In this document: positions 5,042 through 58,288 of the stretch, one piece after another
Numbering within the stretch: the first letter of the stretch is position 1
How the letters are laid out: every line of letters starts with the position of its first letter
Assembly (NCBI GenBank): GCA_965645245.1
Contig: OZ287076.1
Span: 1,240,001 to 1,304,000 of the forward strand
Origin: Massalongia carnosa
Lineage: Eukaryota
Length of the DNA stretch: 64,000 nt
Direction: 5' to 3'
Position numbers and translations under genes: made by a program
Notes under the pieces: generated by a model
The model's input: the letters and a program-made list of their open reading frames with translations, nothing else
Told to the model about the DNA's origin: nothing
Database searches by the model: none

Positions 5042-6863
5042 ACGTAATTTACCCTCATTCGGGTCAGCCCCCATTCGGGTCAGCCACCCAATCGGGTCAC
5101 CCCACCAAAAAAAAAACCTTCGCCCTACACCAAAGAAAAATATTACATTGCTTCCACCATCCCCAAAACTAACTAAAAACATCACTATCCATCTGCATTT
5201 CCTTCCATACGGCCTTTGCGAACTTTACTTTACCATTTAAAGCATGGTACCGTTCCTTTTGTTTGGCCAATGCTTCTTCCTTCCTCTGTTTTTCCTCCGC
5301 AATCGCCTGCCCTTCACCCACAGTCAGCACCCTCGCTTTAACACCCCCCTTTCTGGATGCTTTTTGACGTCCCTGAGCCTTTTTATCAATCAGTTCTTGA
5401 TTGGTGTGTCTTAGAATAACCCTATCAGCGACGGCATTCAAAGCAGTTGTTTTAAGCAACTCAACATGCGCGCGAAGAGATGGAGTTATACAGGATATAA
5501 GGGCATCGCTGACTTCCTGGATTCGCTGCTCCGTTTGGGGGGCATCGGTGACGGTGTTTGGATAGGTAGGAGGTGTGATAGGCCTAGGCAACTTGCCTAG
5601 AACATGCCCTGGATTAAATGGGATGAGGCCTGCCCCCCGCCATGCACCCATGATGTTAGTAGTAGTAATGGCCTGTTTCCTAGCCACCTGAATAAGGCGC
5701 AAAAAATCTAGCTTAGAAATAGTCACAGCCCCGTAACGTGATTGGCTGGAAACGAGTTGTTTATAGGCCTTAGATAAAGGGCCAAAAACACCGACATCCA
5801 GGGGCTGCAATAAATGAGTTGAATGTGGTGGCAAACAAAGGGTATGATTTTCTCTTGGGCACAAAACTCCATAAAAGGAATGGAGACGTGACTCTCATGG
5901 CCATCTACAATTAGCATCCTATACATGCCTCGTTCAGGTTTTGTATGCTTATTGAACACCGTTTGCAACCAATGAAGGCCTATCTCCGCATCCGTCCAAC
6001 CATTGGGACTGACCCGAACGGTATCTGCCTTCGTCTCCATGGCATCATACCATGCAGGTTGAACTTGGGCACCTTGGAAAATGATATAAGCCGGAAGAAC
6101 TGTTCCGTGGGATGATATGCACTCAATAAGAGAAACCCAGTCCCTATTTCCCGGATGCACATTGAATGGTGTTGTTGTTCCTTTGATTATGACCTTCGAA
6201 CTGTCTGCGATGCCCATAGCAAAGCCTTTTCCATCCATGTTGTAAGTATCTTCATCTGAAATCCCATATTTGACCAAGGTGGTCGTGTACAATTCGAACC
6301 AATCACGCAAAATTTCAGGACTACCAGCGTCCTTTCTGGATTGATCGAGGTTTCTATTGTATTTGATTTTGAAATCGGGATGCCTTTTCAGGAACTTTTG
6401 ATACTATTGACGACCCAACGGATTTTTGTCCCCTTTGGCGTTCAGGAGACTTCTGGCCATGCCTTCCAAATGTTGGATACGAGGCGGCCAACCCCATGAG
6501 GTCATCCGCTCTATCCAATCAATCAGAGCCTGTTCTTCGTGGACGGATAGCCTTTGGGCGGCTTGATGATAGTGTTTTGCGGCCCGCCTGCCTTTGAGCC
6601 GGGCCTGTAAAGTCGACTGAGGAACTCCGTAAAGGCGCGCTATTTCCCGCTGCGAAATGCCCGGATTTTTGGCTAATTCTTCGATAGCCAACTGTAATCT
6701 AGTAGCAGAGTCAATTGTAGGCATATTAATGGACATTTTATCTACAACTAATAGATAAATATATGGTGGTGGTGGATTTAAACAGGATAGAATTTTTTTC
6801 GGTCGCTAGATTTTAATGGGGTGACCCGAATGGGGGGCTGACCCGAATGAGGGTAAATTACGT
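5042..6863 (-). mobile_element. Fot1/pogo-type (Tc1/mariner superfamily) DNA transposon, 1822 bp, full length
   Basis: Terminal inverted repeats ACGTAATTTACCCTCATTCGGGTCAGCCCCC(C)ATTCGGGTCA at 5042 and, inverted, ending at 6863; TA on both sides (5040-5041, 6864-6865) as the target-site duplication; internal transposase. Confidence 0.95.
5169..6736 (-). pseudogene. Disrupted DD35D transposase (HTH-psq and CENP-B-type HTH plus DDE_1)
   Basis: HTH motif (SQREIARLYGVPQSTLQARL) and catalytic motifs YNMDGKGF, LIVDGHESH and HLLQPLDVGVF, with 35 residues between the last two Asp after frame repair. In-frame TAG at 6404-6406 where Trp is expected (LGRQ*YQKFLKRHP) and a 1-nt frameshift near 5840. Confidence 0.9.
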
Positions 6864-8994: not shown

Positions 8995-9526
8995 CAGCTA
9001 TTGGTTGCTTTATACTGGAGAACAGAGATAATGATATTGGAAGTTTGAGAAAGTTTACGCATTTATAGCTAATCAACTACAACCTACTTTAGCATCTGTG
9101 AACATGCATGCTTAAAACAACCGAATAGTCCGCTAGGGCGCTGCGAGATATGCTTATTTATCTCTTTCGCTGGTGAATTGGGACACCCCTTTCAAACTAA
9201 CTAGATCAGGCCTGATAACAGTATCGAGTCTCTATTATTAGTGACTCTGAAGCTAATGTTAAGCCTGACCTGGTTAGTCTGAAAGTGGGGTGCCAATTCA
9301 CCAGTGAGAGGTATCCGTGTCCCACACATCACTGGACTGCCTTGCTTAATCCTCTGGCTCAAAAACAAATTTCTACAGCTGTAGAAGAAACCATCGTTTT
9401 CCTCCCACTACAACATGACATGCCAATCAATTGTCTGTAGATTATATGTAATTTCTATTTATATATTTGGCTTTTCACTTTTTTGGAATCACAACTTGAT
9501 CTTATCAAATTCACTTCACATTTAGG

Positions 9527-11134: not shown

Positions 11135-12277
11135 ATGGGTCGTGGACCGTGAGTATTCTCTTATATCTTTCTTGGAGTAATGGAATAGCAAACCTAGCCT
11201 CCTTCAATGCTGTTACCCTTTAATAGAGTAGAGGATTAATGCCTCCGAAGCAAAGATTTGACGAATACTGCTAATGCACTTGATGGATTGACAGGAAGAA
11301 ACACCAGAAGCGCCTCAGTGCGCCATCACATTGGCTCCTTGATAAACTCTCCGGTGCCTATGCGCCTCGTCCGTCAGCAGGGCCACATAAGCTTCGCGAC
11401 TGCATGCCTCTCATCGTCTTCATTCGAAATCGGTCAGTATTGTCTCGAAAATCCTCCTGCAAGGTTACTAATATTTCTTCTCCGATAAGATTAAAGTATG
11501 CTCTAAACTCCCGCGAAACAAAAGCCATCGTCATGCAGCGGCTCATCAAAGTCGATGGCAAAGTCCGTACCGATGTGACCTATCCCGCTGGCTTTATGGA
11601 CGTTATATCGATCGAAAAGACTGGAGAGAACTTCCGCCTAGTTTATGATACCAAAGGACGCTTTACTGTTCATCGCATCACACCTGAAGAGGCGGAATAC
11701 AAGCTGGCAAAGGTCAAGAGAGTCCAATTGGGCAAGGGCGGACTCCCATTCTTGGTTACGCATGATGCGCGAACGTAAGTTTGCTGCGTTGATTCAGCCG
11801 TTGGACCAAGATTTGGTGGTAGTCCAGAGAATACCTGCTAATGGCAAGGTTTTATGCTGCTAGAATTCGGTATCCTGATCCCGCCATTAAGGTTAACGAT
11901 ACAGTCAAGATTGATCTTTCTACCGGAAAGATTACTGATTTCATTCGCTTCGATACCGCCGTCGTTGCGATGGCTACCGGAGGACGTAACATGGGTCGTG
12001 TTGGAGTTATCACCCATCGCGAGCGCCACGATGGTGGCTTCAATATTGTGCATATCAAGGATGCCATTGATAACTCGTTTGCTACCCGGGAGAGCAACGT
12101 TTTCGTGATTGGGAGGGAAAAGCCGTGGATCAGTCTGCCAAAGGGCAAGGGTGTCAAAGTAAAGCTCTCTTCAGGATATGAGCCATCTCGTGGATATATG
12201 CTGACAGCGCAACTTGACAGCTTACAATTGCGGAAGAGAGAGATCGGCGTCGTGCGCAGGCTATCGCCCACCACTAG
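11135..12277 (+). CDS. RPS4: 40S ribosomal protein S4 (eS4)
   Basis: [42 protein letters not shown] and [13 protein letters not shown] motifs; four introns. Confidence 0.97.
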
Positions 12278-43955: not shown

Positions 43956-46900
43956 ATGTCCCACAACTATGGGGGAACCTCAAGCCGTAATGTAGACTTA
44001 GGCAGGTGAGCTTTGGTTTCACGAAAACACCGCTTCCTACAGTCAAAAGCCAGTTGAAGCTTATACATATCACTCCAGATCGGAAACGGAACTGGCAATC
44101 AATATCCGCAAAGCTACAAGCATTGGTCAGCTGTTCCTCACTCATGGTCAAATTTTTGGAACGTCGCGGACTCACTGAGAACTCCAGAGGAATCTGCGCC
44201 CAAACGTAAAGATCGTACCAAGTTGAACTCCAAGGTCAGCGAACTTATTGTTAATAGGCAAGCATGTACGTGCATGTATTGTGTATACTTGGGATCATAA
44301 AGCCTCGAAATCATTCTGGGAAGGCATGAAAGTGTGGGTCTCCAACGTTACGGCTTTACTGAGGCTACATGAAGGTCTTTCAATGTCGATTTGCGCTGAC
44401 AATTTTCCGCTGGTTAAGGCAACCTATCCTTGCTGATGAGGTTCAAACATTCAAGGCCCTGATCACTGTGCACAAGGTTTTACAAGAAGGGCATCCAATT
44501 GCGGTGAAAGAGGCGCAGGAGCATACTAACTGGATTGAAAGTTTGGTTAGAGTATCTGGAGATGGGCTCCGAGGTATGGACCGTCTGGTGCTTCCTTAAA
44601 GCCACATGTCTCCTGCCACTAAACTATTGATTGGCCTGGGGTTTCTGGAGAAGCTAATGGTTGGGGTAGGGTATGGTCCTCTTCTACGAGAATATGTCTA
44701 TTTCCTTCTGGCGAAGTTGGCTTTTCACAAACAACATCCGGAATTTAATGGTGTGTTTAAACTATGACGAACTTTTGCTAGTGCTTTGCTAAACCCATGA
44801 CAGGTCTTTTCGAATATGAAGAGTATATTAGCTTAAAGTTGATTAATGACCCTAATGAAGGGTAGGTCACCTCTATAGCTGCTCTAGAAAATTAAGCTGA
44901 ACGGGCGCTCAGATACGAGACTATTTCTGATCTAATGACTCTTCAAGACCAGATAGATTCCTTTCAAAAGCTTATCTTCTCCAACTTTCAAAGCGGTGCA
45001 AACAATGAGACTAGAATATCGGCCTTAGTTCCTTTAGTTCAGGAAAGCTACGGTATTTATAAGTTTGTCACAAGCATGCTTCGGGCAATGCATACTAGTT
45101 TGTAGCCTGTATTCATCTATCACAGGTTTTTGCTCACGACCATGTAGCCACAGGAGATGATGATGCCCTAGAGCCATTACGAGGGCGATATGATACTCAG
45201 CACTACCGGCTTTTGAAGTTCTACTACGAATGCTCAAATCTTCGATATTTGACAAGCCTAATCACGGTACCGAAACTACCGCAAGAACCTCCTAGCTTGC
45301 TTTCTGAGGAAGAAGACCGTCCTGCCTTGCCCCGAAGGCCTGCTAGAGAAATTGAAATTAGAGATGAGCCGACACCAACGCCGCCTCCTATTGCTACAAC
45401 ACTTGATCCGGAGCCTATCAACGAATTTTGGAAGGGTCAGCAGCAGCGCCAACAAGAAGAATACGATGCTGAGCAGCGAAGATTACAAGAACAGTGGAAT
45501 AATCAACAGTACCAGCAGCAGCTAGCACAGCAACAGGCCGAACGAGACTTCGAAGAGCAACGGCGATTACAGGCTGAGCAACAGCGACTTGCACAGGAGC
45601 AGCTTCTGCGAGATCAGTATCAAGCCCAAACGCAAGGCCGTATGGCAGAGCTTGAACGAGAGAATCTTAACGCACGAGCACAGTATGAGCAAGATCAGCT
45701 AATGTTAGAGCAATACGATCGGAGGATGAAGGATTTAGAAAACCAGCTGAACCAGCTAAACAGTAACTTCAGCCAGCAGACTACTTCAAAGGACGACCAA
45801 ATACGAGCTCTGCAAGAACAAGTCAATACCTGGCGGACCAAGTATGAAGCTCTCGCAAAGCTATACTCTCAGTTACGGCACGAGCACTTAGAGCTGTTAC
45901 AAAGGTTTAAAGGTGTACAGTTGAAGGCAGCTTCCGCTCAAGAGTCCATTGACAAACGAGAAAAGCTAGAGCGAGAAATCAAGACTAAAAATCTAGAGCT
46001 AGCAGACATGATTCGCGAAAGAGACAGAGCTCTCCATGAGAAAGATCGACTCACAGGTGGCAACAGAGAAGAGGTTGAGAAATTGAAGCGCGAACTCCGG
46101 TTTGCACTTGAAAAGGCCGAAAATGTAGAGCGGGCAAAGGGCTCAGAGCTTTCATCGATGCTTTCAAAGTATAACAGGGAAATGGCGGATTTAGAAGAAG
46201 CTCTTAGAGTAAGTCCTCTAACCGCACCTATTAAGCCATGCTAACAGCAAGTTAGAGTAAAACCCGAGCATTGGATGACATCCACTCGAAATACGCCGAG
46301 CGAGATGGCGATCTTGAGCGGAGCTTGCGCGAAAAAGAAGAAGAACTCGAAATCTATAAGTCTGGTATGGATCAGACACTCTTAGAGCTCAACGAGCTCA
46401 GAATGGTTAGTCACAAGTTCGATGGTGTTGAACTTAGCTCATGTATGGTAGAATGACGGGGACACCGATAAAGCCCTTGACGACCAGATTGACCAAGTGC
46501 TTCTCAGCAACATTCAAAAAATCCACGATATCATCGATTCTGTGCTCCTGGCAGGTGTACAACGCGTAGATGACGCCCTCTACGAACTTGATTCTTCGAT
46601 GCAAGCAGGAAATCAAAATGCTTCTGCGCCTTATGTTCTGTCCCAAATTGAGAAAGCCCAATCCAGCGCGACAGCCTTTTCTACAGCTTTCAATGATTTC
46701 ATCGCGGATGGACCCAATAGTCCTCATGCAGACATCATACGTACCATCAACGTGTACGCTGGCTCTATTGCAGACGTGTTAAGCAACGCGAAAGGACTAA
46801 CTCGCTTTGCCACGGAGGAAAAGAAGGCGGACCAGCTCATCAATAGCGCCCGGCAGTCTGCCCAATGTACTGTGAAGTTCTTCCGTGCTCTTCAATCATT

Positions 46901-47820
46901 CCGCCTTGAACCTCTTGAAGATACTCAGAAGACAGATGTCGTAATCAACAATGTACATGAGGTCCTGAAAAATCTCAACGACTTATCAAAGCTGGCCGAT
47001 GCATTCGTTCCCAAGTCCGGAAAGATTACAAATAAGTCTGGCGATATTGGCGACCTTGTTGATCGCGAACTTACGAACGCCGCTAAAGCCATTGACGCAG
47101 CTGCAGCGCGACTGAATAAATTAATGAACAAGCCAAGGGATGGGTATGATACGTACGAGTTACGGATACACGACAGTATCTTAGAGGCAGCAATTGCAGT
47201 TACCAATGCCATCGCTCAGCTCATCAAGGCTGCCACGATCTCACAGCAAGAGATTGTCAAGGAGGGTAGGGGTTCGTCGTCTCGAACGGCTTTCTACAAG
47301 AAGAATAATCGCTGGACGGAAGGATTGATCAGCGCTGCCAAAGCCGTTGCATCTTCTACCAACACGTTGATAGAGACTGCGGATGGGGTCATCAGCGGGA
47401 GCAGAAGTCCCGAGCAGCTCATCGTCGCAAGCAATAACGTAGCGGCTTCCACCGCACAACTGGTGGCGGCCAGCAGAGTTAAGGCAAACTTTGGTAGCCC
47501 AACGCAAGATCGACTCGAGGAAGCTAGCAAAAGTGTTCGGAAAGCTTGCAAGAGTCTGGTTCGACAGGTACAGGATATCATCGCACGACGAAACCAAGAC
47601 GACGATGAAGAGATTGATTACACGAAGCTGAGTAACACGGAGTTCAAGTCTCGGGAGATGGAGCAGCAGGTTTGTCTTGGGTTCTTTCTCATGGTTCGGG
47701 GACTGCACTATACTAACCACTGTTACCGTCCAGGTGGAGATCCTACAGCTAGAGAATAGCCTCACGCAGGCAAGGCAGCGACTTGGAGAGATGCGCAAGA
47801 TCTCCTACCAGGAAGATTAG
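43956..47820 (+). CDS. SLA2: Endocytic adaptor Sla2/End4 (ANTH, coiled coil, I/LWEQ)
   Basis: ELAINIRKATS, KHVRACIVYTWDH, FKALITVHKVLQEGHP, FYKKNNRWTEGLISAAKAVA and ASTAQLVAASRVKA motifs; many short introns; the canonical MAT-flanking gene. Confidence 0.95.
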
Positions 47821-48777
47821 ATACAGGATACCTCTGGATTGGAGGGGCTTTATGTACAGTAGATGTTCAGCATCCGCCCGACTACGGGGCTCCTCCATAT
47901 GCACACAAATGACGGCGTCCAGCGAAGAGTGGTTGCCAATTACAACGCTTGGCCACGAATGGACAGCTCTGAGTTGGGAGCCGTGTAGCATGAGCAGTAG
48001 GCAGATGGGTTGGGGAGGCGCGGTCCGGTAACATGGAGCAACATAGTTTCTCCCTGGAACACTTTTTGGCGCTGCGCTTGAGGAGCTGCAGCGACGGAAG
48101 GATCGAAGTGGTTCTCTGCCAGCGACGTGGCGTTTGCTCGTGCTGGTTTGGTTTCGGGCTTGTGTTTAGCTTTCTGCTTCAGCGGAAGCGATTCAAAACA
48201 AACCACCTTAAAGTGATATCGTTAACACGATTCTGCAACGTCCGAGAGGTTACGCAACGCCAGTTTATTTATCCCCTGTAGAGCTGCCAGCCTGCTTCCC
48301 GGCACCAGATGCAGCAGCGGAGGTTTGTGTTCCTTTCGTGACAGCTTCCCCTTCTGACAAGAAAGGTCTTGCTATCACAAGACCCTGGCCTGCGCATGCG
48401 TTCCGTGACCATTCCAGCCCATTCCAAAAGCCCGTAATAGTGCGGCAAGCCAGCAGGGCTACCAGCCCAGTCCAGGTCATGAAGGTTCAAAACTCAATGT
48501 GGACAGCTAGACGACCAAAAAGTGTTGCGAGGGGCATGATAGACAGAAGTGTGTACCACCCCTCCCCAAAAGTGGAGGGGAACATGGGGAACACGAGGAA
48601 AATGGGAAACATGGGGAAACTAGGAAAAAGTATTGAAGAAACAAAATGCTATGACGGGCTTTCTTTGTTTGTATTCACTTGTGAGACTCACCCCACCTCA
48701 CTAATTACCAGCAACCGAAACCATTACCGACTAGTGAATCAACGGTGAAATGTGACTTCCGGAGGACAAAGGACAGT

Positions 48778-48831
48778 CACACACACACACAGAGACACAC
48801 ACACAGAGAGACACACACACACATACACACA
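48778..48831. repeat. Compound (CA)n/(GA)n microsatellite
   Basis: CACACACACACACAGAGACACACACACAGAGAGACACACACACACATACACACA read directly. Confidence 0.9.
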
Positions 48832-49560
48832 AAATTAAGGGGGGGGGTTGTTTTGGGTGATCTAGGCCGGGTAGTTATTCTGAACTCGATACACAGTACG
48901 AAGTACTTAGTTAAGCGCTCGCGAGCAGGCTTTTTGGTTAGATTAGTACCACAAACCTACCCAAAGTTAAGCGCAACAACAACGACAACAACCAGCTTCC
49001 CCAACCTCATCGTGATGGCTCCGATCCAAGTGCCCCCGAACCTGCCTGTCGTGGAATCATGTCCGTTTCGTACGTAGATGGCCACAAAACTAGCTGATGA
49101 CAAGGACAATAAACCCCCGGGGGGGAAGGGGAGTTTCGGGCAGGGCGTTCTCGAATTGGGGATCTGGCCGTTTTTCTTCTCTGATGCTACTGGACGAGTG
49201 GAGCTTCCGCATCGTGAGTAAGATTCATGGAACCCTTTCTCTCCCTCCCCCCGCCTGTATGCCCCTCCAGTCATTATCCGTTGGTCGGTATCGTCTGGGA
49301 CTTTGTGAAAATGATAGACTTCGCTTTTGCCTGCCTGCCTGTCTGTATGGAAGAAGAAAAAGGGAGCTGATCCGCGAGGGGGTAAATCTGTCAGTCTGCG
49401 TCAGTTGCGTCGGCCGGGTTTGCATGGCTGCTGAGAAGGGATCTGGAATTCGGTTGTGTTCTTGGCCGAGTCCTTGCTTCCTGTCGCCCTACCTATCCAT
49501 ATCCCTAGACTTCCGCGGCTATGGTGGTCGAGGACCAGAAACAGGACGAGGAATGAGAGT

Positions 49561-49666
49561 TAGGGGTGGAACACGGGTAGGTAAGGCGGGGGAGGCTTGT
49601 GGTGATCTTATCCGTCATCAGGGAAGTATTTCATTAACCTAATCATGCAGCCCTAAGATAAATACA
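49561..49666 (+). repeat. MAT direct repeat, copy 1 (SLA2 side of the MAT1-2 block)
   Basis: TAGGGGTGGAACACGGGTAGGTAAGGC..GGTGATCTTATCCGTCATCAGGGAAGTATTTCATT..CTAATCATGCAGCCC..AAGATAAATACA; aligns with 52302-52407 with 3 substitutions and 3 small indels (manual alignment). Confidence 0.95.
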
Positions 49667-49870
49667 TGATGCAATGTTCTGACTCCACATCTTCCTACTT
49701 CATGGAAGAAGCTCTTTCCTCAGCTCTTTCCTCAGCGTGTATGGCTGTCTGCATTCCTTAAACCTTAGAGATTTACGGACCTATCATGCATCTTTGAGTT
49801 TTCATGATTCATACCGGCAGCTATAAGCCAGGTTTATTTTAGTCGGATACATGGTGATTAGTGCAATCAG

Positions 49871-50606
49871 TCAGGTTTTGTTGCGCCTCCAGGTTTTGAA
49901 CAAGCTCTTACGGCTCAAGGATCGAATGTTTTGTATCAACATTGATTGCTCCAAAGCCTGAGTAGGGCCTAAAAGCGTTTCTTTGGCCGCAACTTGGTTT
50001 TTCAGATTAGTAATATAAAAGTACGAACAATTTATGGAGACTTACACCAAGCGTTCAATGAATCTGTGTCAGCTTGTATGTGTCTAGCAAGAAATTCACT
50101 CTCTGCTGGGTTTGGCACTCCATGTTTGGTGTAGAACTCCTCAAGGATAATCTGGGTCCCTGGCGGAATTTCACGGGGAAAGATGCCGGCAAGTTGACCC
50201 GAAACCTTCAGTGAGCTAGACGCTGATGTTAGCCACAGGTGTTGGTTACAAATATCTATTAGATGCCGTACTCTTCTGCCTTAATGAGTAGAAGTCTTCC
50301 TATCCTATCAAAACTATCATCCTCGGTACTGAGGATCGTGTTGAGCAGTCGCTGCTGTCCCTTGAACATCCTGTTAAATGCTGCAAGCATCTTCACATTT
50401 ACACGAACCCTCGACGGAAGAACTGCTTCTCGAGCCATAGATATCGGAACAGAAGAAGGACTCTCGGATGCTGAGTTCTCTTTGCTTGGTGCATGCTTGC
50501 TTAAGATTTTGTCAAGCTCTGAGATTTTTTCTCGGAGACGTCTTCTAGACTTCGCATTATTTCGCTTATGGAAGATTCTTCCAAGCCGAGTTTGTGTGGA
50601 AAACAT
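49871..50606 (-). CDS. Putative auxiliary MAT1-2 idiomorph gene, divergent from MAT1-2-1
   Basis: 115-codon first ORF (MFSTQTRLGRIFHKRNNAKSRRRLREK) followed by GT..CTAAC..AG and GTAAGT..CTAAT..AAG introns; lies inside the repeat-bounded block. The 3' exon structure is ambiguous (stop at about 49871 or 49908). Confidence 0.55.
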
Positions 50607-50978
50607 TGGGTATAAAAGATCAAGTCTGAGGTAATCTGAGAATGAACTTGTGGATACCGCTCGTGAAAATGATATAAATGGAGGATTGAGCGTCTTCTCT
50701 CTGGAATAAGAGCCCTAGGTTTGTGTTGAAAGGTGTGTTTTGAAAGTGAATAAAGAAATCACTAGCCTGTTTCTTTTTAGGACATATTGTGATCACTACA
50801 AATTCCCGCTTCAACCCCATTCTGACCGTCACCTTTCATCATCCATACAATATCTTCAATCTTTGCTTCTCCACATTCAGTCAACATCTTCAGGATACCG
50901 GCTATCTTAGGACCTCAGCTTATTCCTTTACATATTCACCTAGCACTGAGCTCTAAAAATCCTGCCTTGTTTATAATA

Positions 50979-52142
50979 ATGGCAGCTCTCGCAATTCAAG
51001 CCGCAAACACGATCTGGGGGCAAGCAGAGAGGGTTATTAATGAAGGGCGCGCTACTAAGATCTCACTTCCTGTTCTAACGCAGTTGCGCATTGGAAAAGT
51101 AGGAATTGATATCATCAAGGCCAAATACAGGTAGTTTTACTCACTCTCTTGACGTTCTGGTTCAAAGACTAACGTGAACCAAGCGAACTAATCCAAGCTG
51201 AAGTTATAACTAGAGTCACTGCTGCTGGACTCTTACAATTCATGCCTCCCAACAACACTTGGGGCCCTGTTTTCAATCCAGCAGAAAAAGTGGTAGATTC
51301 TAAGAAATCTAAACTCCCTCGTCCTCCCAATGCTTTTATATTATATCGCCAGCAACATCATCCTTCCATAAAGGAAGCCTATCCTGATTTACATAATAAT
51401 CAGATTTGTAAGAACCTATATCTTACCAAATCTAACGGTGCTAATCTGCGACAGCCATCATTCTAGGCAAGCAGTGGAAGAACGAAGACAAAGCCACTAA
51501 AGATATGTTTAAGCGTATGGCCGAGGACCTAAAGAAGAAGCACTTCGAGGAGAATCCCGGATACCACTATCAACCTCGAAAACCGACCGAGAAGAAGCGT
51601 CGTATGACCCGCCGAAAACTAGATACAATTTGTAAGAGTGCTAGCACTCATGTCGAGTCATCTACTGAATTAGCTTCTGTTGAGACATTCCAGGCGGATG
51701 GCAATTCAACTGCCTTGCCAGACATTGAGACCATAGAGGCTGGAAATGCTGCTGTTACCTATGGCGACGAGACTATCGACGATGAGTCATTTGAGGCTAT
51801 GCTTAAGCACTACAACTCCACTATTCCGGATTCTGGCCCACACCATGGAAAGAGCACCGCTATCTACACAGAACGTACTGCCGAGGCTAACGAGAATATT
51901 ACACTGTATGGAGCAAAATGTTTTGATGATATCTTTCTCGGTCCCACCCAGCAGGAATCTCTAGCAGAGCTAGATCGAATTCTTGGGCCTATCGAGAAGC
52001 TGGATGAGGCCTGGGATACTTTGGATGGCTCGCAGCAAGCGCAGATTTTGAGTCCAGACTTCGATTTTGGTAAGGGCGATTCCATCCTTGGTTTATGGTC
52101 TAACGTTTTAAAGACTCTTTTTTTGAGAAACTTACCTTCTGA
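50979..52142 (+). CDS. MAT1-2-1: HMG-box mating-type transcription factor
   Basis: KLPRPPNAFILYRQQHHP..NNQI|SIILGKQWKNE..HFEENPGYHYQPRK with the conserved Ser-codon intron (51408-51454); 5' intron 51131-51183; probable 3' intron 52070-52113. No stop codons or frameshifts after splicing. Confidence 0.95.
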
Positions 52143-52207
52143 AGGAGCTCGTGTCTTCAAGGTGTTCACACCCGATACATGGCATTTAAATACATCTCCC
52201 CCTCCTT

Positions 52208-52305
52208 CTTACAACTCACCTCACATACAAATCCCAGGTACTTGTACCTCGGAATGCCCCCTTTTACACATCCCCTTACAACTCACCACACATACAAATC
52301 CTAGG
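52208..52305 (+). repeat. 31-bp near-tandem duplication at the MAT1-2 / repeat-copy-2 junction
   Basis: CTTACAACTCACCTCACATACAAATCCCAGG (52208-52238) versus CTTACAACTCACCACACATACAAATCCTAGG (52275-52305), 2 mismatches. Confidence 0.85.
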
Positions 52306-52407
52306 GGGGTGGAACACGGGTAGGTAAGGCGGGGAGGTTTGTGGTGATCTTATCCGTCATCAGGGAAGTATTTCATTGAACTAATCATGCAGCCCAAGAT
52401 AAATACA
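52302..52407 (+). repeat. MAT direct repeat, copy 2 (between MAT1-2-1 and MAT1-1-1)
   Basis: Same-orientation copy of 49561-49666. Confidence 0.95.
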
Positions 52408-52951
52408 GGACTGAGTTTCTCCGTATAAGTCTACCGGTACTCCAACAAAGATCTAGCCATTGGCGGGGATTATGAAGAAGCTACAGTAAAGCTCCTAATT
52501 GAGGAGATTGTACCTCTACATTTATTATATTTTCCTCACTTCATATCAGCTTTAATACTATCTCATTTCTAGTACCGTTGCTTCATGTTCTCCTAATTGC
52601 ATTCTAGCATCTGGAGCTACCTACTAAGAGAATCGGCAGAAGGGGATGCTATTTCCATGGAATGTGACTTTGAGCATATCTTCTAGCAGTCCCACGCTAA
52701 TATCCGCCCATCGCCAGTGAAGGAAAACTAGATACTAGCCAAGTCATTTATCTACAGTAACCGTTGATCATTCCTAGCCATCGTTCAATCCATCAATTAA
52801 TTCGTTGTTTTCTTGAATACCCAAAGCTCCTATTTCAGTACTAATAGGAGCATAGCCAACACAACCGGTAAAAGGCATATGCTGCAAGAAAATGACTATG
52901 GTTTGTTAGCTTTCCGAGAGAATTAGGGTGTTAATGTATTTGCGTTGGCTT

Positions 52952-54185
52952 TTAAAGGGGTTCTTCAAGGACCCATTCGCTCATGTTGAAATCAAACGGA
53001 CTAAGACAGCTAATGTTGATAGCATCAAAACTATACCGATTGGCTGGATCCCAGGCTGCTGAATCCAAAAACTGTGCAAACTCGTCATCAAACTCATAAT
53101 GACCGTTAGAGCTGAGATCCCTAGTGATCGTGGAGGTGTTCGCAACAACGTTAGCTCGGTGGGCAGTGTTGGCTTGCACAACATTTAGGGTGCTTGAAAT
53201 TCCTGTATGGGGGGCTGTATTAACAACATTTAGATTGGTCGCATTTGGACTTTGAGTAGGGAATGCCGAGGCTCCAGCTGCATTCTTATCAGTCTGGACT
53301 AAAAAATAATAACCCCCTACATTACTTACAAGTATTACCAGCAATCTGAACAGGTCCTTGAAGACCCGTAGAACCATTTCCAGCGGTAGCGCTATGGTGA
53401 CTCGCACGAGTTATAGCTGAAGAACCAACCGATTGTGCAGAATTCGCCATTGCCAAGGTAGCTTGATGATTCGGGCGGTCGAAGCTATAGCCGTCGGCCA
53501 TATAACCCGCGTTGAAGCTATTTTGGATTACATCCTCAACTGAGGCATTAGTGATGAGCGTTTGGTTATCGAATCCTTGATCATGGAAGCAGTTTGTACG
53601 GCGCAAGGTAGTGTGCCCGGCACTATTAGCTGCGACCTCCCATCCATAAACGACCAAGTACATGTCCGGGGGGGTGATCCCCACAAAAGGCGCATTGATT
53701 GCGAGGAACTTATCCAATGGAGCCTTCTCTTTACCAACCTGATCGCGAATCACGGAGAATGCTTTTGCAATGATACTCCATTTACCTTTAGAATTTTCTG
53801 CCTGCCAAAGATGCGTTAGGAACCCAGAGATATCTTTCTGCTGAAAACTCGTAAAGATGCAAGCATAATAAGCTTAGATCAGTTAGCGTATGGCTACAAG
53901 TTGATCTATTAGACACTTACTACGATACGCCATCCAAGAATTAAGAGGACGAATCGCCTTAAAAATAACCGCATTCACTTCGGGAAGTTTCTTTGTATCT
54001 TTACCATGAAGAGCTGAAATGGCCACAGCTGTGCTAGGTCCGGTCTCAGCGGCTGGTTGAAGCAATGTAGAACCCTGGTTGGTGGCCAAGGAGTTAAGGA
54101 TATTTTGAGCTGCGATAGTCATTTTTTCAACCTGGTGAGGGTTCAAAGAGGCGAATACCCGCTGAGCTGCAGGTGACATGTTCAT
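52952..54185 (-). CDS. MAT1-1-1: Alpha-box mating-type transcription factor (about 377 aa)
   Basis: IRPLNSWMAYR|TYYACIFTSFQQKDISGFLTHLWQAENSKGKWSIIAKAFSVIRD with the conserved alpha-box intron (53920-53873); a second intron 53329-53278 joins the 52952 ORF in frame. Start is 54185 or 54179. Confidence 0.95.
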
Positions 54186-54584
54186 TTCCTTAGAGGTGGG
54201 AAGCTCTTTAGAGAATATTGAATTCAAGCTATGATATGAAGTAGGGTTGCAAGAAATCCGGAGATGTGGAGGTGCAAGAGCAAATGAGTTGTGGATGAAG
54301 AGAGAGTTGGAGGAAGTTGGAAGAGGTTGGATGATTCTTGGTTTATTTATAAGTTGGAGTTTGTGTTGATGTTAGGTGAATTTGTGATGAGACTTTCTTT
54401 GTGCCAGTGAGGCGGAGGCAGACGCATCCAAAAACAAATGGGAGGCCGATCATTTAGTCTCCTTTTATCTTCATGCAAAGAAACACTAACTCTGCTTTAC
54501 AAGTTCTCGTCAATCCATAATTGTTTTCAAAGGTTTTATCAGTTTCAAATTGTCATTTCCTAATACTGTGTGAACCATCCCTCC

Positions 54585-55794
54585 CTACTTCCCAGAGACT
54601 GGAAATTCGTTCACGACGACAGCAGCTCTAGATGCTGTTTCCTGTATTCTTTCAGGGCGCTCTAATGAAATTAGCATCCTTCCTACATTCCTAAGTTATG
54701 GGGGGGGGTTTTACGGAAACTATTATTCAGCGACTCTAAGCTTGACATATTGTTTTTAGCCAACGGACGTACAAAGTCTCCGTCATAGCCAGGAAATGGT
54801 GGTAGAATTTTATGAGCCTATTTATCATTAGTAAGAGAAGCCACAGGTTTTTATGGTGCTTGATACCAAGGTTACTATACGGGTACTTTGTTTAGCGGTG
54901 GTCCATGTTTGAGTGGGGCTCTGATATATGTTAGCTATTCTATTAACCAAGTTCGGTGCAAATAATATGATGGGCTCACCGAGATTTCTATTGGATTCGT
55001 TTTGCGCTACTAGAGGATTAGGGAAGTTCGTTAGGGATAGGGCGATCCTCCATGCATATGAACTTACAGTTCCAAGTGCCTGAAGGACAGATCGACGGTC
55101 TTCCTTCATCTTATGTATAATAAGCTTCGCCGCGGTTGGTATAACTTGAATGCTCCCAGCTTCAGGCTTATACCAGTCATCATATCCACCTTCTTGTGGA
55201 TTGTTGTGGAGGAACTGCTGCCAGGATTTTCGCTCTTCAGTTTCGTCAAAAAGAAAAATGTCGGTGAAAGACTCTTCAATAGATTCATGAAAGATGTCTC
55301 GCGCTTCTGAGATCTTGTCCATTTCTAAATCAACTTTTATGAGAGTATCACGGATTTGAGAAACGTCGTAATTAAAATATTCTTCAACGATCTTGCTGGC
55401 AAAAAGTTCTGGATGTTTGTTTAGCCGTTCGATCTCCGGAATAGAGATATCTAAGCACTGAGTAATATTCTTCTCGTTGTGTTCGGGAAAATTAATATGC
55501 GCAAAGATCGCCACAAGGAGATTGAATTTGATGCATCGCAGAAAGTGGTTGCTGCAAGGATAGGAAATGCCGAACGTATCTAGTGGTGTCAAACAAGTCT
55601 ACAGCATTATGGAAAATGTTCTCACCTTTGACAGTGCCTTTATTTTCATCCTCGAAAGTCAGAGGCTCAAGGTTAGGTCTTTTTAAAGTCCGACTGACTT
55701 TGATCCACTCTCGATCTACCGACGCAAGGAATTCAGCATCCGAAAGCTCATTCTTAGATAGCTTGAATCGACGTTTCACCCTGGTAGTAGGCAT
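54585..55794 (-). CDS. Putative auxiliary MAT1-1 idiomorph gene between APN2 and MAT1-1-1
   Basis: ORFs 55492-55794 and 54828-55592 join in frame through a 46-nt intron 55625-55580; two further GT-AG introns extend the frame (AHKILPPFPGYDGDF..FPVSGK*). No domain recognised; the call rests on position. Confidence 0.65.
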
Positions 55795-56084
55795 AGTTGC
55801 AACGGTAGGACAAAGTCAAGATCCTAGAAGCAGCTTTGATTGCCATACAAAATAGTTAAGGCGGAGAAGAGATGTTTACGAACCAACGAAACAGTTGGGC
55901 TTTTCGCAACTCTATTTAAAGTGATGTTTAAGTGAATGAAGAAGCTATAGTCATATCGGAGCTTCAATAGTCGCTAGGTTGTGAATGGGGTAGAGCCTTG
56001 AGGAATGCACACTAACAGATCCACACATCCAGATTTTTTTGAGGGGGTAATTTTGTTAAATAACATAATTCACGATTTCGCTTG

Positions 56085-58288
56085 CTATGCTTGAGCCACC
56101 GGTTCCGAATGAGGCAAACAGTCTTCATGGACTGAATTCTTTGCAGCAATCGCATTCCAATCGCTGCACCAAATGAAGGTTTGGCATCGCCACTGGGTAT
56201 TCCTTTCCTTGGACCCCGTGGGTCCTAGCGGCCGTGGGCACATCCAGAACGATCTCCCGCAGTTGATGCCGCTCTTCCTTGTCAGGAAGCTGACACATGG
56301 CTCGCGGTGCCCCTCGCACCGCGGCGCCGCTGGTTTAGCGAAAAGCTTGAACCATGAATCTTTGGACTCCACGGGGTCGTGCACGGTTTCTTGACTTTGA
56401 GAAGTGCCTCCGTCGTGATCTGCTTCGTTTGTCTCGACAAAGGACATTGACTCTTTATCAGAGACTCGCGGCGAAAGAGCCGCTGGAGATAAGAGTGTTG
56501 AAGTCAGTTGATTGGTATTGGGAATATTAAACATGTCTGCCGTCCTGGCCGTTTGCGGAAGATTGTGTCTGGGGATACTTTTGTCTGAGCCTAGCTGCGA
56601 TGCAACCATCTCTAGATCAAGAGTGGCGATGCCGCTAATAGAGCCAGATGCGCCTTTGGGTTTGAAGAAGCCTTTGAGGCTTTGTTGTTGACCCTTTGAA
56701 CTAGCTACAGGCATTGTCGCGGTAGACCCGACCTTTGCTCGCTTCAACGATTTGGCATTAACACCCTCGCCCAAAAGCCGTTTGTTGTCTGTTGGTGACA
56801 GTGACTTGGCTGGGTTCGTTCCCGTGGTTTCACATTCGGTTCTAGATGAGCGTGTTCGTTGAAGCGCCTGTTTACCTGCCAAGGGTGGCTTGGAAAGCCA
56901 AGTTGAAGAAGTACCAATATCTGCTTCTGGGCTAGGAATACATTTGCACTGTTTAGGGGCGAGAGAAGGTTTCCGGTTGAACATATCACGGATGCTCCTT
57001 CGACCGTCAAATTCGGGGATCAGCTTTCCAGATAGAGGCAGGATATCTTTGGTAGAGTATTCTCTCTGACGCTGACCATGCAAGAACATCCCAGTAGGGT
57101 TCATTACATCCAACAAACAAACATACTCCCCATCAATCAAAACTTTATTATTCATAGTCGCATAGACAGGGCAATGATCTGACCCCTGTTCGCTCGAGTT
57201 AGCGAAGAAGCTCCATTCTTATTCATATAGAAATAATACCATAAGACCCTCCTGTATGTTGGAGCCAGAAAACCATCCCTTCATCGCTAGACTGCACAGC
57301 ACATAATCAATTCTAGAACCATAGTTTCCAGGCCTTGCATTGGTCTTTTGCTCCCAGCAGGTGAACATGCCTTTTCGACCTGGGTGGAACTCGCGACAGA
57401 TATCCCACAAAACTGGCTCCTCCCTCCCCTCGTCCCTTTCTCCAAAAACCTTGCCACCCTCTAGAAGCTGATTGAATAGACGTCTAGAAGACGTTGAGAC
57501 ATACTCCTCCGCCGTCATACCCATTTTCCGCATCGATGTTTCGGCATTGGCCGTGTCGAGTTCTTCTCGAGATATGTTGAGGTCCCCAGTCAATATGACT
57601 TTCTTACCAATCGACACCAGGTTTCGAATACGTGCATCCAGCAGATTGAGAAACCCAAGCCTATACTCATCCCTTGACTCGTCCCTGTTCGCTGGACTGT
57701 ACACACCCAAGAGCACAAAAGCAGGAAACTCGAGTATTACGCATCGTCCTTCGGAGTCTACGGTGGCAGCATCGACTGCTGAATTGGCAAGTTGAGCCGG
57801 AGTAGGATAACCTCCAATTTGTTGATTCGCTGAGAGATCTGAGAAGCGTGTCGACGAGTTCGGCGGGCAAAGGACCCCTGTGATACCTTCCTCGGCGCGA
57901 ATTGGTGCGCAGACTGATTGCTTCGTATATATTACTACTCCAGAATAACCTAAGCGGTGTTAGTCGTCTCCTTTAGACCATGACGATTGAAGCCGCACCT
58001 TTTTTATGCCTTGGTAAACTCCAATAGCAGTCCCACCCTTGAACAAGCACCATGTCATCGCGTAAATCCTTCCTTTGGATCTTGGTCTCTTGGAAGATGA
58101 CTATATCAGCTTCCAAGATCTCGAACATTGCCTCGAAAGTCTTCTTGCTCCCCCATGGTTGATACTGAAATGGATTCCGTATGCCATTGACTGCTGTGCA
58201 TTAGCAGAATAGCCCATAAATCCAGTGTTAGATTATAGAAGCGTAAGAATCACTAACCATTCCAGGTGGTTATACGTAGCGCCATCAT
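56085..58288 (-). CDS. APN2: AP endonuclease / DNA lyase 2
   Basis: LRITTWN|VNGIRN, FQETK, GYSGV, DSEGR, GDLN, GSRIDY and GSDHCPV motifs plus a C-terminal GRF zinc finger (CEGHREPC..GRSFWMC..CQTFIW); the canonical MAT-flanking gene. Confidence 0.96.

Follow-up and report, generated by a model that had tools for sequence, protein, structure and literature searches.

The mating-type (MAT) locus in a 64,000-nucleotide stretch of contig OZ287076.1 (assembly GCA_965645245.1, Massalongia carnosa, positions 1,240,001 to 1,304,000; hereafter the window, whose own coordinates are used throughout) unites the genes of both mating types. An alpha-box gene, MAT1-1-1, and an HMG-box gene, MAT1-2-1, both intact as judged from their sequence, share a single haploid locus flanked by SLA2 and APN2, and the MAT1-2 genes are enclosed by two copies of a direct repeat of 107 bp. 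This repeat is probably a piece of the SLA2-side flank that was duplicated when an unequal or illegitimate crossover fused the two idiomorphs, and that is now static in a locus of the primary-homothallic type; its origin by crossover and the lack of regular excision are both what we infer. An earlier note on this DNA had given priority to another interpretation, namely that the two copies delimit an excision cassette for unidirectional mating-type switching, and had named the scar of an idiomorph fusion as the alternative.

As established from open reading frames (ORFs), Pfam domains and homologues, the order of features is SLA2(+), copy A of the repeat, an auxiliary gene(-), MAT1-2-1(+), copy B of the repeat, MAT1-1-1(-), a second auxiliary gene(-), APN2(-), COX6A(+) and an APC5-like gene(-). 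The features of the MAT locus are as follows:

45099-47815, plus strand: SLA2, 3' two thirds, with the Pfam domains ANTH and I_LWEQ; left flank of the MAT locus.
49563-49669, plus strand: copy A of the repeat, 107 bp, non-coding.
49871-50606 (3' end approximate), minus strand: auxiliary MAT1-2 gene, with its ATG at 50606 and exon 2 within 50032-50280.
50979-52323, plus strand: MAT1-2-1 (HMG box), three exons, ATG at 50979, TAG at 52321-52323.
52306-52410, plus strand: copy B of the repeat, 105 bp, between the 3' ends of MAT1-2-1 and MAT1-1-1.
52952-54185, minus strand: MAT1-1-1 (alpha box, Pfam PF04769), three ORF pieces, stop at 52952-52954, ATG presumably at 54185.
54828-55815, minus strand: auxiliary MAT1-1 gene, recognized from ORFs, upstream of MAT1-1-1 and on the same strand.
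56085-57959, minus strand: APN2 (DNA lyase), Pfam Exo_endo_phos; right flank of the MAT locus.

To judge from the tblastn alignments, MAT1-1-1 is full-length and is not split by the MAT1-2 block. The homologue P0157 (347 amino acids) aligns through its residues 8-262 to 54107-53352 and through residues 272-346 to 53179-52964, and P0158 (333 amino acids) aligns through residues 293-331 to 53107-52961. The C-terminal exon is aligned by 2 of the 11 homologues tested, and the other nine cover the alpha-box part only, as is expected because the tail of MAT1-1-1 is poorly conserved. The gene runs as far as its own stop codon, which is separated from copy B by 540 bp, and blastn and tblastx found no MAT1-1-1 fragment to the left of copy A and no 3' fragment of it inside the MAT1-2 part, which is the place where such a fragment has been described in heterothallic Lecanoromycetes (PMC10512270, PMC11515122). 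As to MAT1-2-1, Pfam places the HMG_box domain (PF00505) on exons 2 and 3, and the two introns, at about 51131-51183 and 51407-51453 as judged by eye, agree with the exon edges given by tblastn. A third intron at 52070 was considered and ruled out, since the sequence read without splicing, GKGDSILGL, lines up with the motif at the C terminus of the relatives' proteins.

The two copies of the repeat are 94.4% identical over 107 columns (E 1e-41) when the window is compared with itself by blastn, and a repeat search returns them as two direct families in register, one of 29 nt at 100% identity (49563-49591 and 52306-52334) and one of 65 nt at 95% identity (49589-49653 and 52331-52395). The pair had been reported in the earlier note at 49561-49666 and 52302-52407, which lies within 2-4 bases of the blastn coordinates, and at a spacing of about 2741 bp, close to the 2742-2743 bp measured here from the start of copy A to the start of copy B. 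The three small indels of that description are found again, each of them of one base, whereas the substitutions counted in the MAFFT alignment number four (C/T, A/G, C/A and T/G) rather than three, giving seven differing columns out of 107; the longest stretch without a mismatch measures 39 nt (49597-49635). A 35-nt core of the repeat occurs twice in the window against zero occurrences expected from 100 shuffles; the search for further copies covered the 64-kb window, and the rest of the genome could hold more. Homology between the copies breaks off sharply at the left and right edges, the surroundings of the two copies sharing no similarity by blastn or tblastx, and no other repeat pair of this kind was found by blastn self-comparison within 45-58 kb. 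When the repeat and its flanks were compared with 42 related loci (described below), no match was obtained except for the last exon of SLA2, so the border of the idiomorph is not placeable by such comparison. Between SLA2 and copy A lies an ACAC/AGAG microsatellite (48773-48839), at which every public contig is broken.

Copy A follows shortly after the 3' end of the auxiliary MAT1-2 gene, and copy B after those of both MAT1-2-1 and MAT1-1-1, the MAT1-2-1 frame ending within copy B. Such an arrangement would suit a repeat kept for some other function, such as a 3' regulatory element or terminator shared by the genes next to each copy. The repeat itself gave no Rfam match, no transfer RNA and no unusual RNA fold (z 0.6 and 0.9), a stop codon is present in all of its frames (tblastx), and its sequence is not conserved in the 42 related loci; a functional element of this type is therefore considered highly unlikely.

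Three details fit a crossover as the origin of the repeat, namely its abrupt right edge, a short duplication at the junction and an overrun of MAT1-2-1. In an alignment of nine of the 36 MAT1-2-1 matches (P0006, P0008 and weaker ones being excluded), the frame of the gene, both in the window and in P0001, extends about 71 codons past the point at which all eight aligned relatives stop, and its TAG lies inside copy B, as would be expected if the native 3' end of the gene had been changed at the junction. The tail is also open in P0001, which comes from a second individual, with an in-frame deletion of three bases and one substitution. The left edge of copy B adjoins the 3' end of MAT1-2-1, and immediately before it there is a 31-bp local duplication (52208-52238 and 52275-52305, 94% identity, 67 bp apart), the second copy of which ends precisely where copy B starts (52305/52306), and which may be the footprint of an illegitimate junction. 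Thus, the fusion scar that the earlier note had offered as its alternative proves the better fit to the details of the junction.

According to this favoured reading, a MAT1-2 haplotype (SLA2, flank, auxiliary gene and MAT1-2-1) would have been joined to a MAT1-1 haplotype just beyond the 3' end of MAT1-2-1, by an unequal or illegitimate crossover falling 107 bp beyond the SLA2-side edge of the MAT1-1 idiomorph, so that the last stretch of the common flank would now lie on both sides of the MAT1-2 genes. Copy A would represent the end of the common SLA2-side flank, the MAT1-2 idiomorph would start at the right edge of copy A, and the sharp right edge of the repeat would be the idiomorph border. 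The divergence between the copies may be original, as they would have descended from the flanks of different mating-type chromosomes. Because all four MAT genes are intact, self-fertility would need no rearrangement, and because MAT1-1-1 is whole, deletion of the block would restore nothing; the repeat would have no programmed role and would permit at most a rare spontaneous loop-out of the MAT1-2 genes.

A fused locus could also be produced by assembly, if the two idiomorph haplotypes of a mixed thallus had been concatenated and the second copy were no more than flank sequence contributed by the other haplotype. The public contigs include none that reaches from one copy to the other, and the divergence between A and B would fit allelic flanks. 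Five public runs from three studies carry the sequence, of which four (X1, X3, X4 and X5) were examined and X2 was left out, in all cases as Logan contigs built with k=31. These contigs break in the repeat, the left-flank contig ending in copy A and the right-flank contig beginning in copy B, and the block between is covered by one contig of 2730 bp in X3 and 2759 bp in X4. Contigs of two studies nevertheless cross the junction between MAT1-2-1 and copy B (52305/52306), as far as 52335 in X3 and 52368 in X4, and the right-hand contig is continuous from copy B through MAT1-1-1 to APN2 over 15,568 bp (X3) and 15,546 bp (X4). The MAT1-2 block and the MAT1-1 part both stand at full, not half, flank depth, and X5 has pieces of each. 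These data argue against a chimera: the fused structure is real and common to independent samples, and is not a composite of two mixed haplotypes, linkage across the shared 39-nt run resting on the window's own assembly. A concatenation artefact is accordingly regarded as extremely improbable.

In order to place the locus among its relatives, metagenomes were scanned with the MAT1-2-1 alignment, which yielded 42 loci from 221 pattern matches, and these were then compared with the ORFs of the window by tblastn. The following loci are relevant here:

L001, L002, L012 and L040: SLA2(+), MAT1-2-1(+), APN2(-), COX6A, APC5; MAT1-2-only loci.
L016 and L018 (1-14000 each): SLA2(+), MAT1-1-1(-), auxiliary gene(-), auxiliary gene(-), MAT1-2-1(+), APN2(-); fused loci with the reverse order.
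L030 (271-6232) and L036 (6755-12952): a near-full alpha box beside MAT1-2-1 and APN2; more distant fungi, with APN2 at about 62% identity.
L007, L028 and L038: short alpha-box fragments only.

In L001 and L002 an auxiliary gene(-) lies between SLA2(+) and MAT1-2-1(+), in the order and orientation of the block in the window. This block is thus colinear with the heterothallic MAT1-2 loci of relatives, which identifies the left part of the fused locus as a MAT1-2 haplotype. The loci L016 and L018, which belong to a Lecanoromycete-like fungus and whose SLA2 is 84-92% identical to that of the window, have equal coordinates and are probably one species in two assemblies; they suggest an independent origin of a homothallic-type locus in Lecanoromycetes. 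The ancestral orientation of each idiomorph is kept both in the window and in L016, and the two orders correspond to the two types of product that would be expected if chromosomes of opposite mating type had undergone an unequal crossover.

A comparison of L016 with itself returned an inverted motif of 35 nt alone, and that of L036 a local tandem repeat only (6596-6782). The motif of L016, of 29-35 nt, recurs in inverted and direct orientation at 6122-6156, 9212-9240 and 11357-11391, that is, upstream of each of the two genes MAT1-1-1 and MAT1-2-1 and also between the latter and APN2, and it could be a common regulatory element.

Primary homothallism in Cochliobolus reportedly arose by the fusion of idiomorphs through unequal crossover, as Yun et al. 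are said to have described in 1999. Like such fused-idiomorph homothallics, among them Cochliobolus and Endocarpon pusillum, the window has both idiomorphs between SLA2 and APN2, with intact genes in their ancestral orientations; unlike them, it comes from the Lecanoromycetes, and a 107-bp duplication of the flank at the junction brackets the MAT1-2 genes. E. pusillum, which belongs to the Eurotiomycetes, has been presented as the one lichen fungus with a fused locus and primary homothallism (PMC6414310).

On the other hand, the arrangement recalls systems in which mating type is switched in one direction. In such a working switch, homologous recombination or single-strand annealing between the copies would regularly excise the MAT1-2 block of 2.74 kb as a loop, either during meiosis or in ascogenous cells, so that MAT1-1-only, self-sterile nuclei or progeny would exist beside self-fertile ones, and MAT1-1-1, unlike in the known systems, would need no repair. 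We consider this unlikely for the window. As the earlier note had claimed, the direct repeats enclose exactly two genes, MAT1-2-1 and its divergent auxiliary partner (Pfam, homologues, tblastn), and a loop-out would indeed leave an intact MAT1-1 locus composed of SLA2, one repeat, full-length MAT1-1-1, the auxiliary gene and APN2 (tblastn).

A close comparison is with Sclerotinia trifoliorum, in which two 146-bp repeats that are 100% identical surround 2891 bp, one of them lying in MAT1-1-1, which is split and becomes continuous in the deletion allele only; strains as well as tetrads of this species have yielded both alleles (Xu et al. 2016, PMC4891775). As in the window, MAT1-1-1 with an auxiliary gene and MAT1-2-1 with an auxiliary gene lie there between APN2 and SLA2, and the repeat-bracketed block holds exactly two MAT1-2 genes (2891 bp against about 2742 bp here). 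In contrast, the repeats of the window are 94.4% identical and non-coding, its MAT1-1-1 is whole, and the deletion allele is not seen in contig data, which are of low power in this respect. In Chromocrea spinulosa two identical 115-bp repeats have been described, together with a MAT1-1-1 divided into two fragments, one large and one small, and in its self-fertile strains most nuclei carry the deletion (Yun et al. 2017, PMC5608430). There too, direct repeats of about the same length as in the window flank the MAT1-2 genes and a loop-out leaves a MAT1-1 locus, whereas the contig of the block in the window is as deep as its flanks, in addition to the differences in repeat identity and in MAT1-1-1. 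Ceratocystis fimbriata has 260-bp repeats around 3581 bp, and C. albifundus has 84-bp repeats around 3348 bp, the second of which makes up part of the 5' end of the MAT1-1-1 frame (PMC13334188, PMC4891775). In both species, as in the window, the direct repeats enclose MAT1-2-1 together with a second MAT1-2 gene, the deleted region being 3.3-3.6 kb long; unlike there, no repeat of the window lies in the 5' end of MAT1-1-1, and a deletion would not change this gene. Among the hallmarks of switching, the window therefore displays both mating types in one locus with the MAT1-2 genes between direct repeats, but its repeats are not identical (94.4%, with three indels), identical repeats being the genomic signal of switching used in PMC10569646, nor does either copy lie within MAT1-1-1, nor is MAT1-1-1 interrupted by a MAT1-2 insert.

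Identity matters in this context, as short diverged repeats are known from yeast to recombine far less than identical ones. The copies in the window, with 39 nt as their longest identical run against full identity in the proven systems, would consequently be expected to allow at most a rare spontaneous loss of the MAT1-2 genes.

The public runs were inspected for traces of such a loss. No deletion joint was found in any of the four runs examined, a result to which k=31 contigs lend little power: a crossover within the identical run of 39 nt would leave no 31-mer that is not already present, and a deletion allele would then be detectable by depth only. Contig depth, which is no measure of cell share, was 165.5 for the block and 149.8 and 160.9 for the flanks in X3, 26.3 for the block and 26 and 28 for the flanks in X4, and 829-920 for the block and 837-1015 for the flanks in X1. 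Block depth about equal to flank depth is evidence only against a large block-less fraction, such as a majority of the kind present in C. spinulosa. The MAT1-2 block and MAT1-1-1 are both present in all four runs, which represent the three studies, and none was without the block. One of them, X5, came into question as a block-less strain from its word share of 0.47, and was ruled out as such, its data being thin and fragmented and including pieces in the block (e.g. 50951-51238) as well as in MAT1-1-1. Taken with the non-identical repeats, the lack of a copy in MAT1-1-1 and the unsplit state of that gene, this low-power search, which returned neither a joint nor a depth deficit, means that the switching cassette put forward in the earlier note has gained no support.

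The run X4 stems from another individual, which differs from the window over 9 kb by 33 substitution and 3 indel places and has an equal structure; its copy B retains the B-type states bar one deleted base, and no recent homogenisation between copies A and B is visible. The left-flank contig of X3 extends past 49591 by a single unmatched base, and a contig of 72 nt (32+1+39) covers 52306-52377. Of the six loose ends listed for X1 within 47000-56000, four abut GATC, at which the contigs of this run break, and X1 looks like a proximity-ligation library. Another loose end of X1, at 49594 (29 letters), is not at GATC and has no match in the window.

A number of points weigh against a static fusion scar, and several of them count at the same time for a working switch. 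Firstly, repeats that bracket the MAT1-2 genes alone, with a clean MAT1-1 locus after loop-out, are the architecture of every proven switching system; since there is no other such repeat pair in 45-58 kb, MAT1-2 alone could be lost. Secondly, a length of 107 bp lies inside the 84-260 bp range of the known switching repeats (84, 115, 146 and 260 bp). Thirdly, blastn comparisons made as for the window found a flank duplication in none of the three other distinct fused loci (L016/L018, L030 and L036), so the repeat is not an automatic by-product of fusion. Fourthly, that the repeat is ancestral flank is something we infer, the loci compared including no MAT1-1 haplotype of a heterothallic relative. 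Furthermore, the contig ends of X3 suggest that the G-run of its copy A (49587-49596) fits four G's, as in copy B, in which case one of the differences between A and B would be polymorphic, through slippage or gene conversion. Finally, an excision limited to ascogenous tissue or to meiosis would escape these data, and k=31 contigs could reveal a deletion allele only as a depth deficit. Should these points prevail, the locus could represent the first repeat-mediated unidirectional switch in a lichen-forming fungus, of independent origin and with its cassette downstream of an intact MAT1-1-1 between imperfect 107-bp repeats, for which we see a slim chance.

As regards the affiliation of the locus and the genes that accompany it, homology indicates that the window is the locus of a lichen-forming Lecanoromycete, on account of its SLA2 and MAT1-2-1 and of the label lichen metagenome borne by one public run that carries the sequence. 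The SLA2 protein shows 84-87% identity to its Lecanoromycete counterparts. Among the best 120 of 2431 matches to it, four proteins from metagenome-assembled genomes (MAGs) of Teloschistaceae are 87% identical, most other named lichen-fungus proteins are 81-85% identical, and Eurotiomycetes come next with 79-80%; the last SLA2 exon (47765-47815) matches that of relatives. The nearest MAT1-2-1 homologue outside the species has 47% identity, and the sole named close match, from a Teloschistes MAG, has 41% (36 matches among 556 candidates). APN2 is 79% identical to that of L001, L012 and L016.

Neither auxiliary gene has a Pfam family. Exon 2 of the auxiliary MAT1-2 gene shows 38-42% identity by tblastn to an ORF at the equivalent place and strand in L001, L002, L003, L016 and L018, and exon 1 has three matches among 1.84 billion representatives. 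By its position this gene is probably MAT1-2-14, the gene that has been described at this place of the MAT1-2 locus of Lecanoromycetes, where MAT1-1-7 is the companion in MAT1-1 (PMC10512270, PMC11515122). The auxiliary MAT1-1 gene, which only weakly resembles the ORF found at the equivalent position in L016 and L018 (23% identity, E 4e-5), occupies the position of the gene called MAT1-1-7. A homeodomain-like Atlas feature on exon 2 of the auxiliary MAT1-2 gene, with a score of 0.80-0.82 (below 0.9), is a lead only; a homeodomain-type domain has been mentioned for some MAT1-2 auxiliary genes of Lecanoromycetes (PMC6414310, 2019).

Lichen fungi cannot be crossed in culture, and their mating is therefore poorly known. 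All 39 Lecanoromycete genomes in a survey published in 2019 carried single-idiomorph, heterothallic loci only, and its authors argued that the class lacks genetic homothallism (PMC6414310). A literature search, from which subscription journals were mostly missing, returned neither a more recent description of a fused MAT locus in Lecanoromycetes nor any account of lichens that switch mating type. A fused MAT locus with four intact genes is a known route to self-fertility, found here in a class where it was thought absent, and self-fertility by idiomorph fusion seems to have arisen at least twice in Lecanoromycetes, once in the fungus of the window and once in that of L016 and L018.

The repeat poses a simple question that can be tested by polymerase chain reaction, namely whether the fusion reverts by loss of the MAT1-2 genes. 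If it does, the locus would rank as the first switch of mating type in lichens and as a fifth independent origin of the mechanism, and a self-fertile thallus of this fungus would shed MAT1-1-only, outcrossing progeny. If it does not, the junction would still be a record of how the fusion arose.

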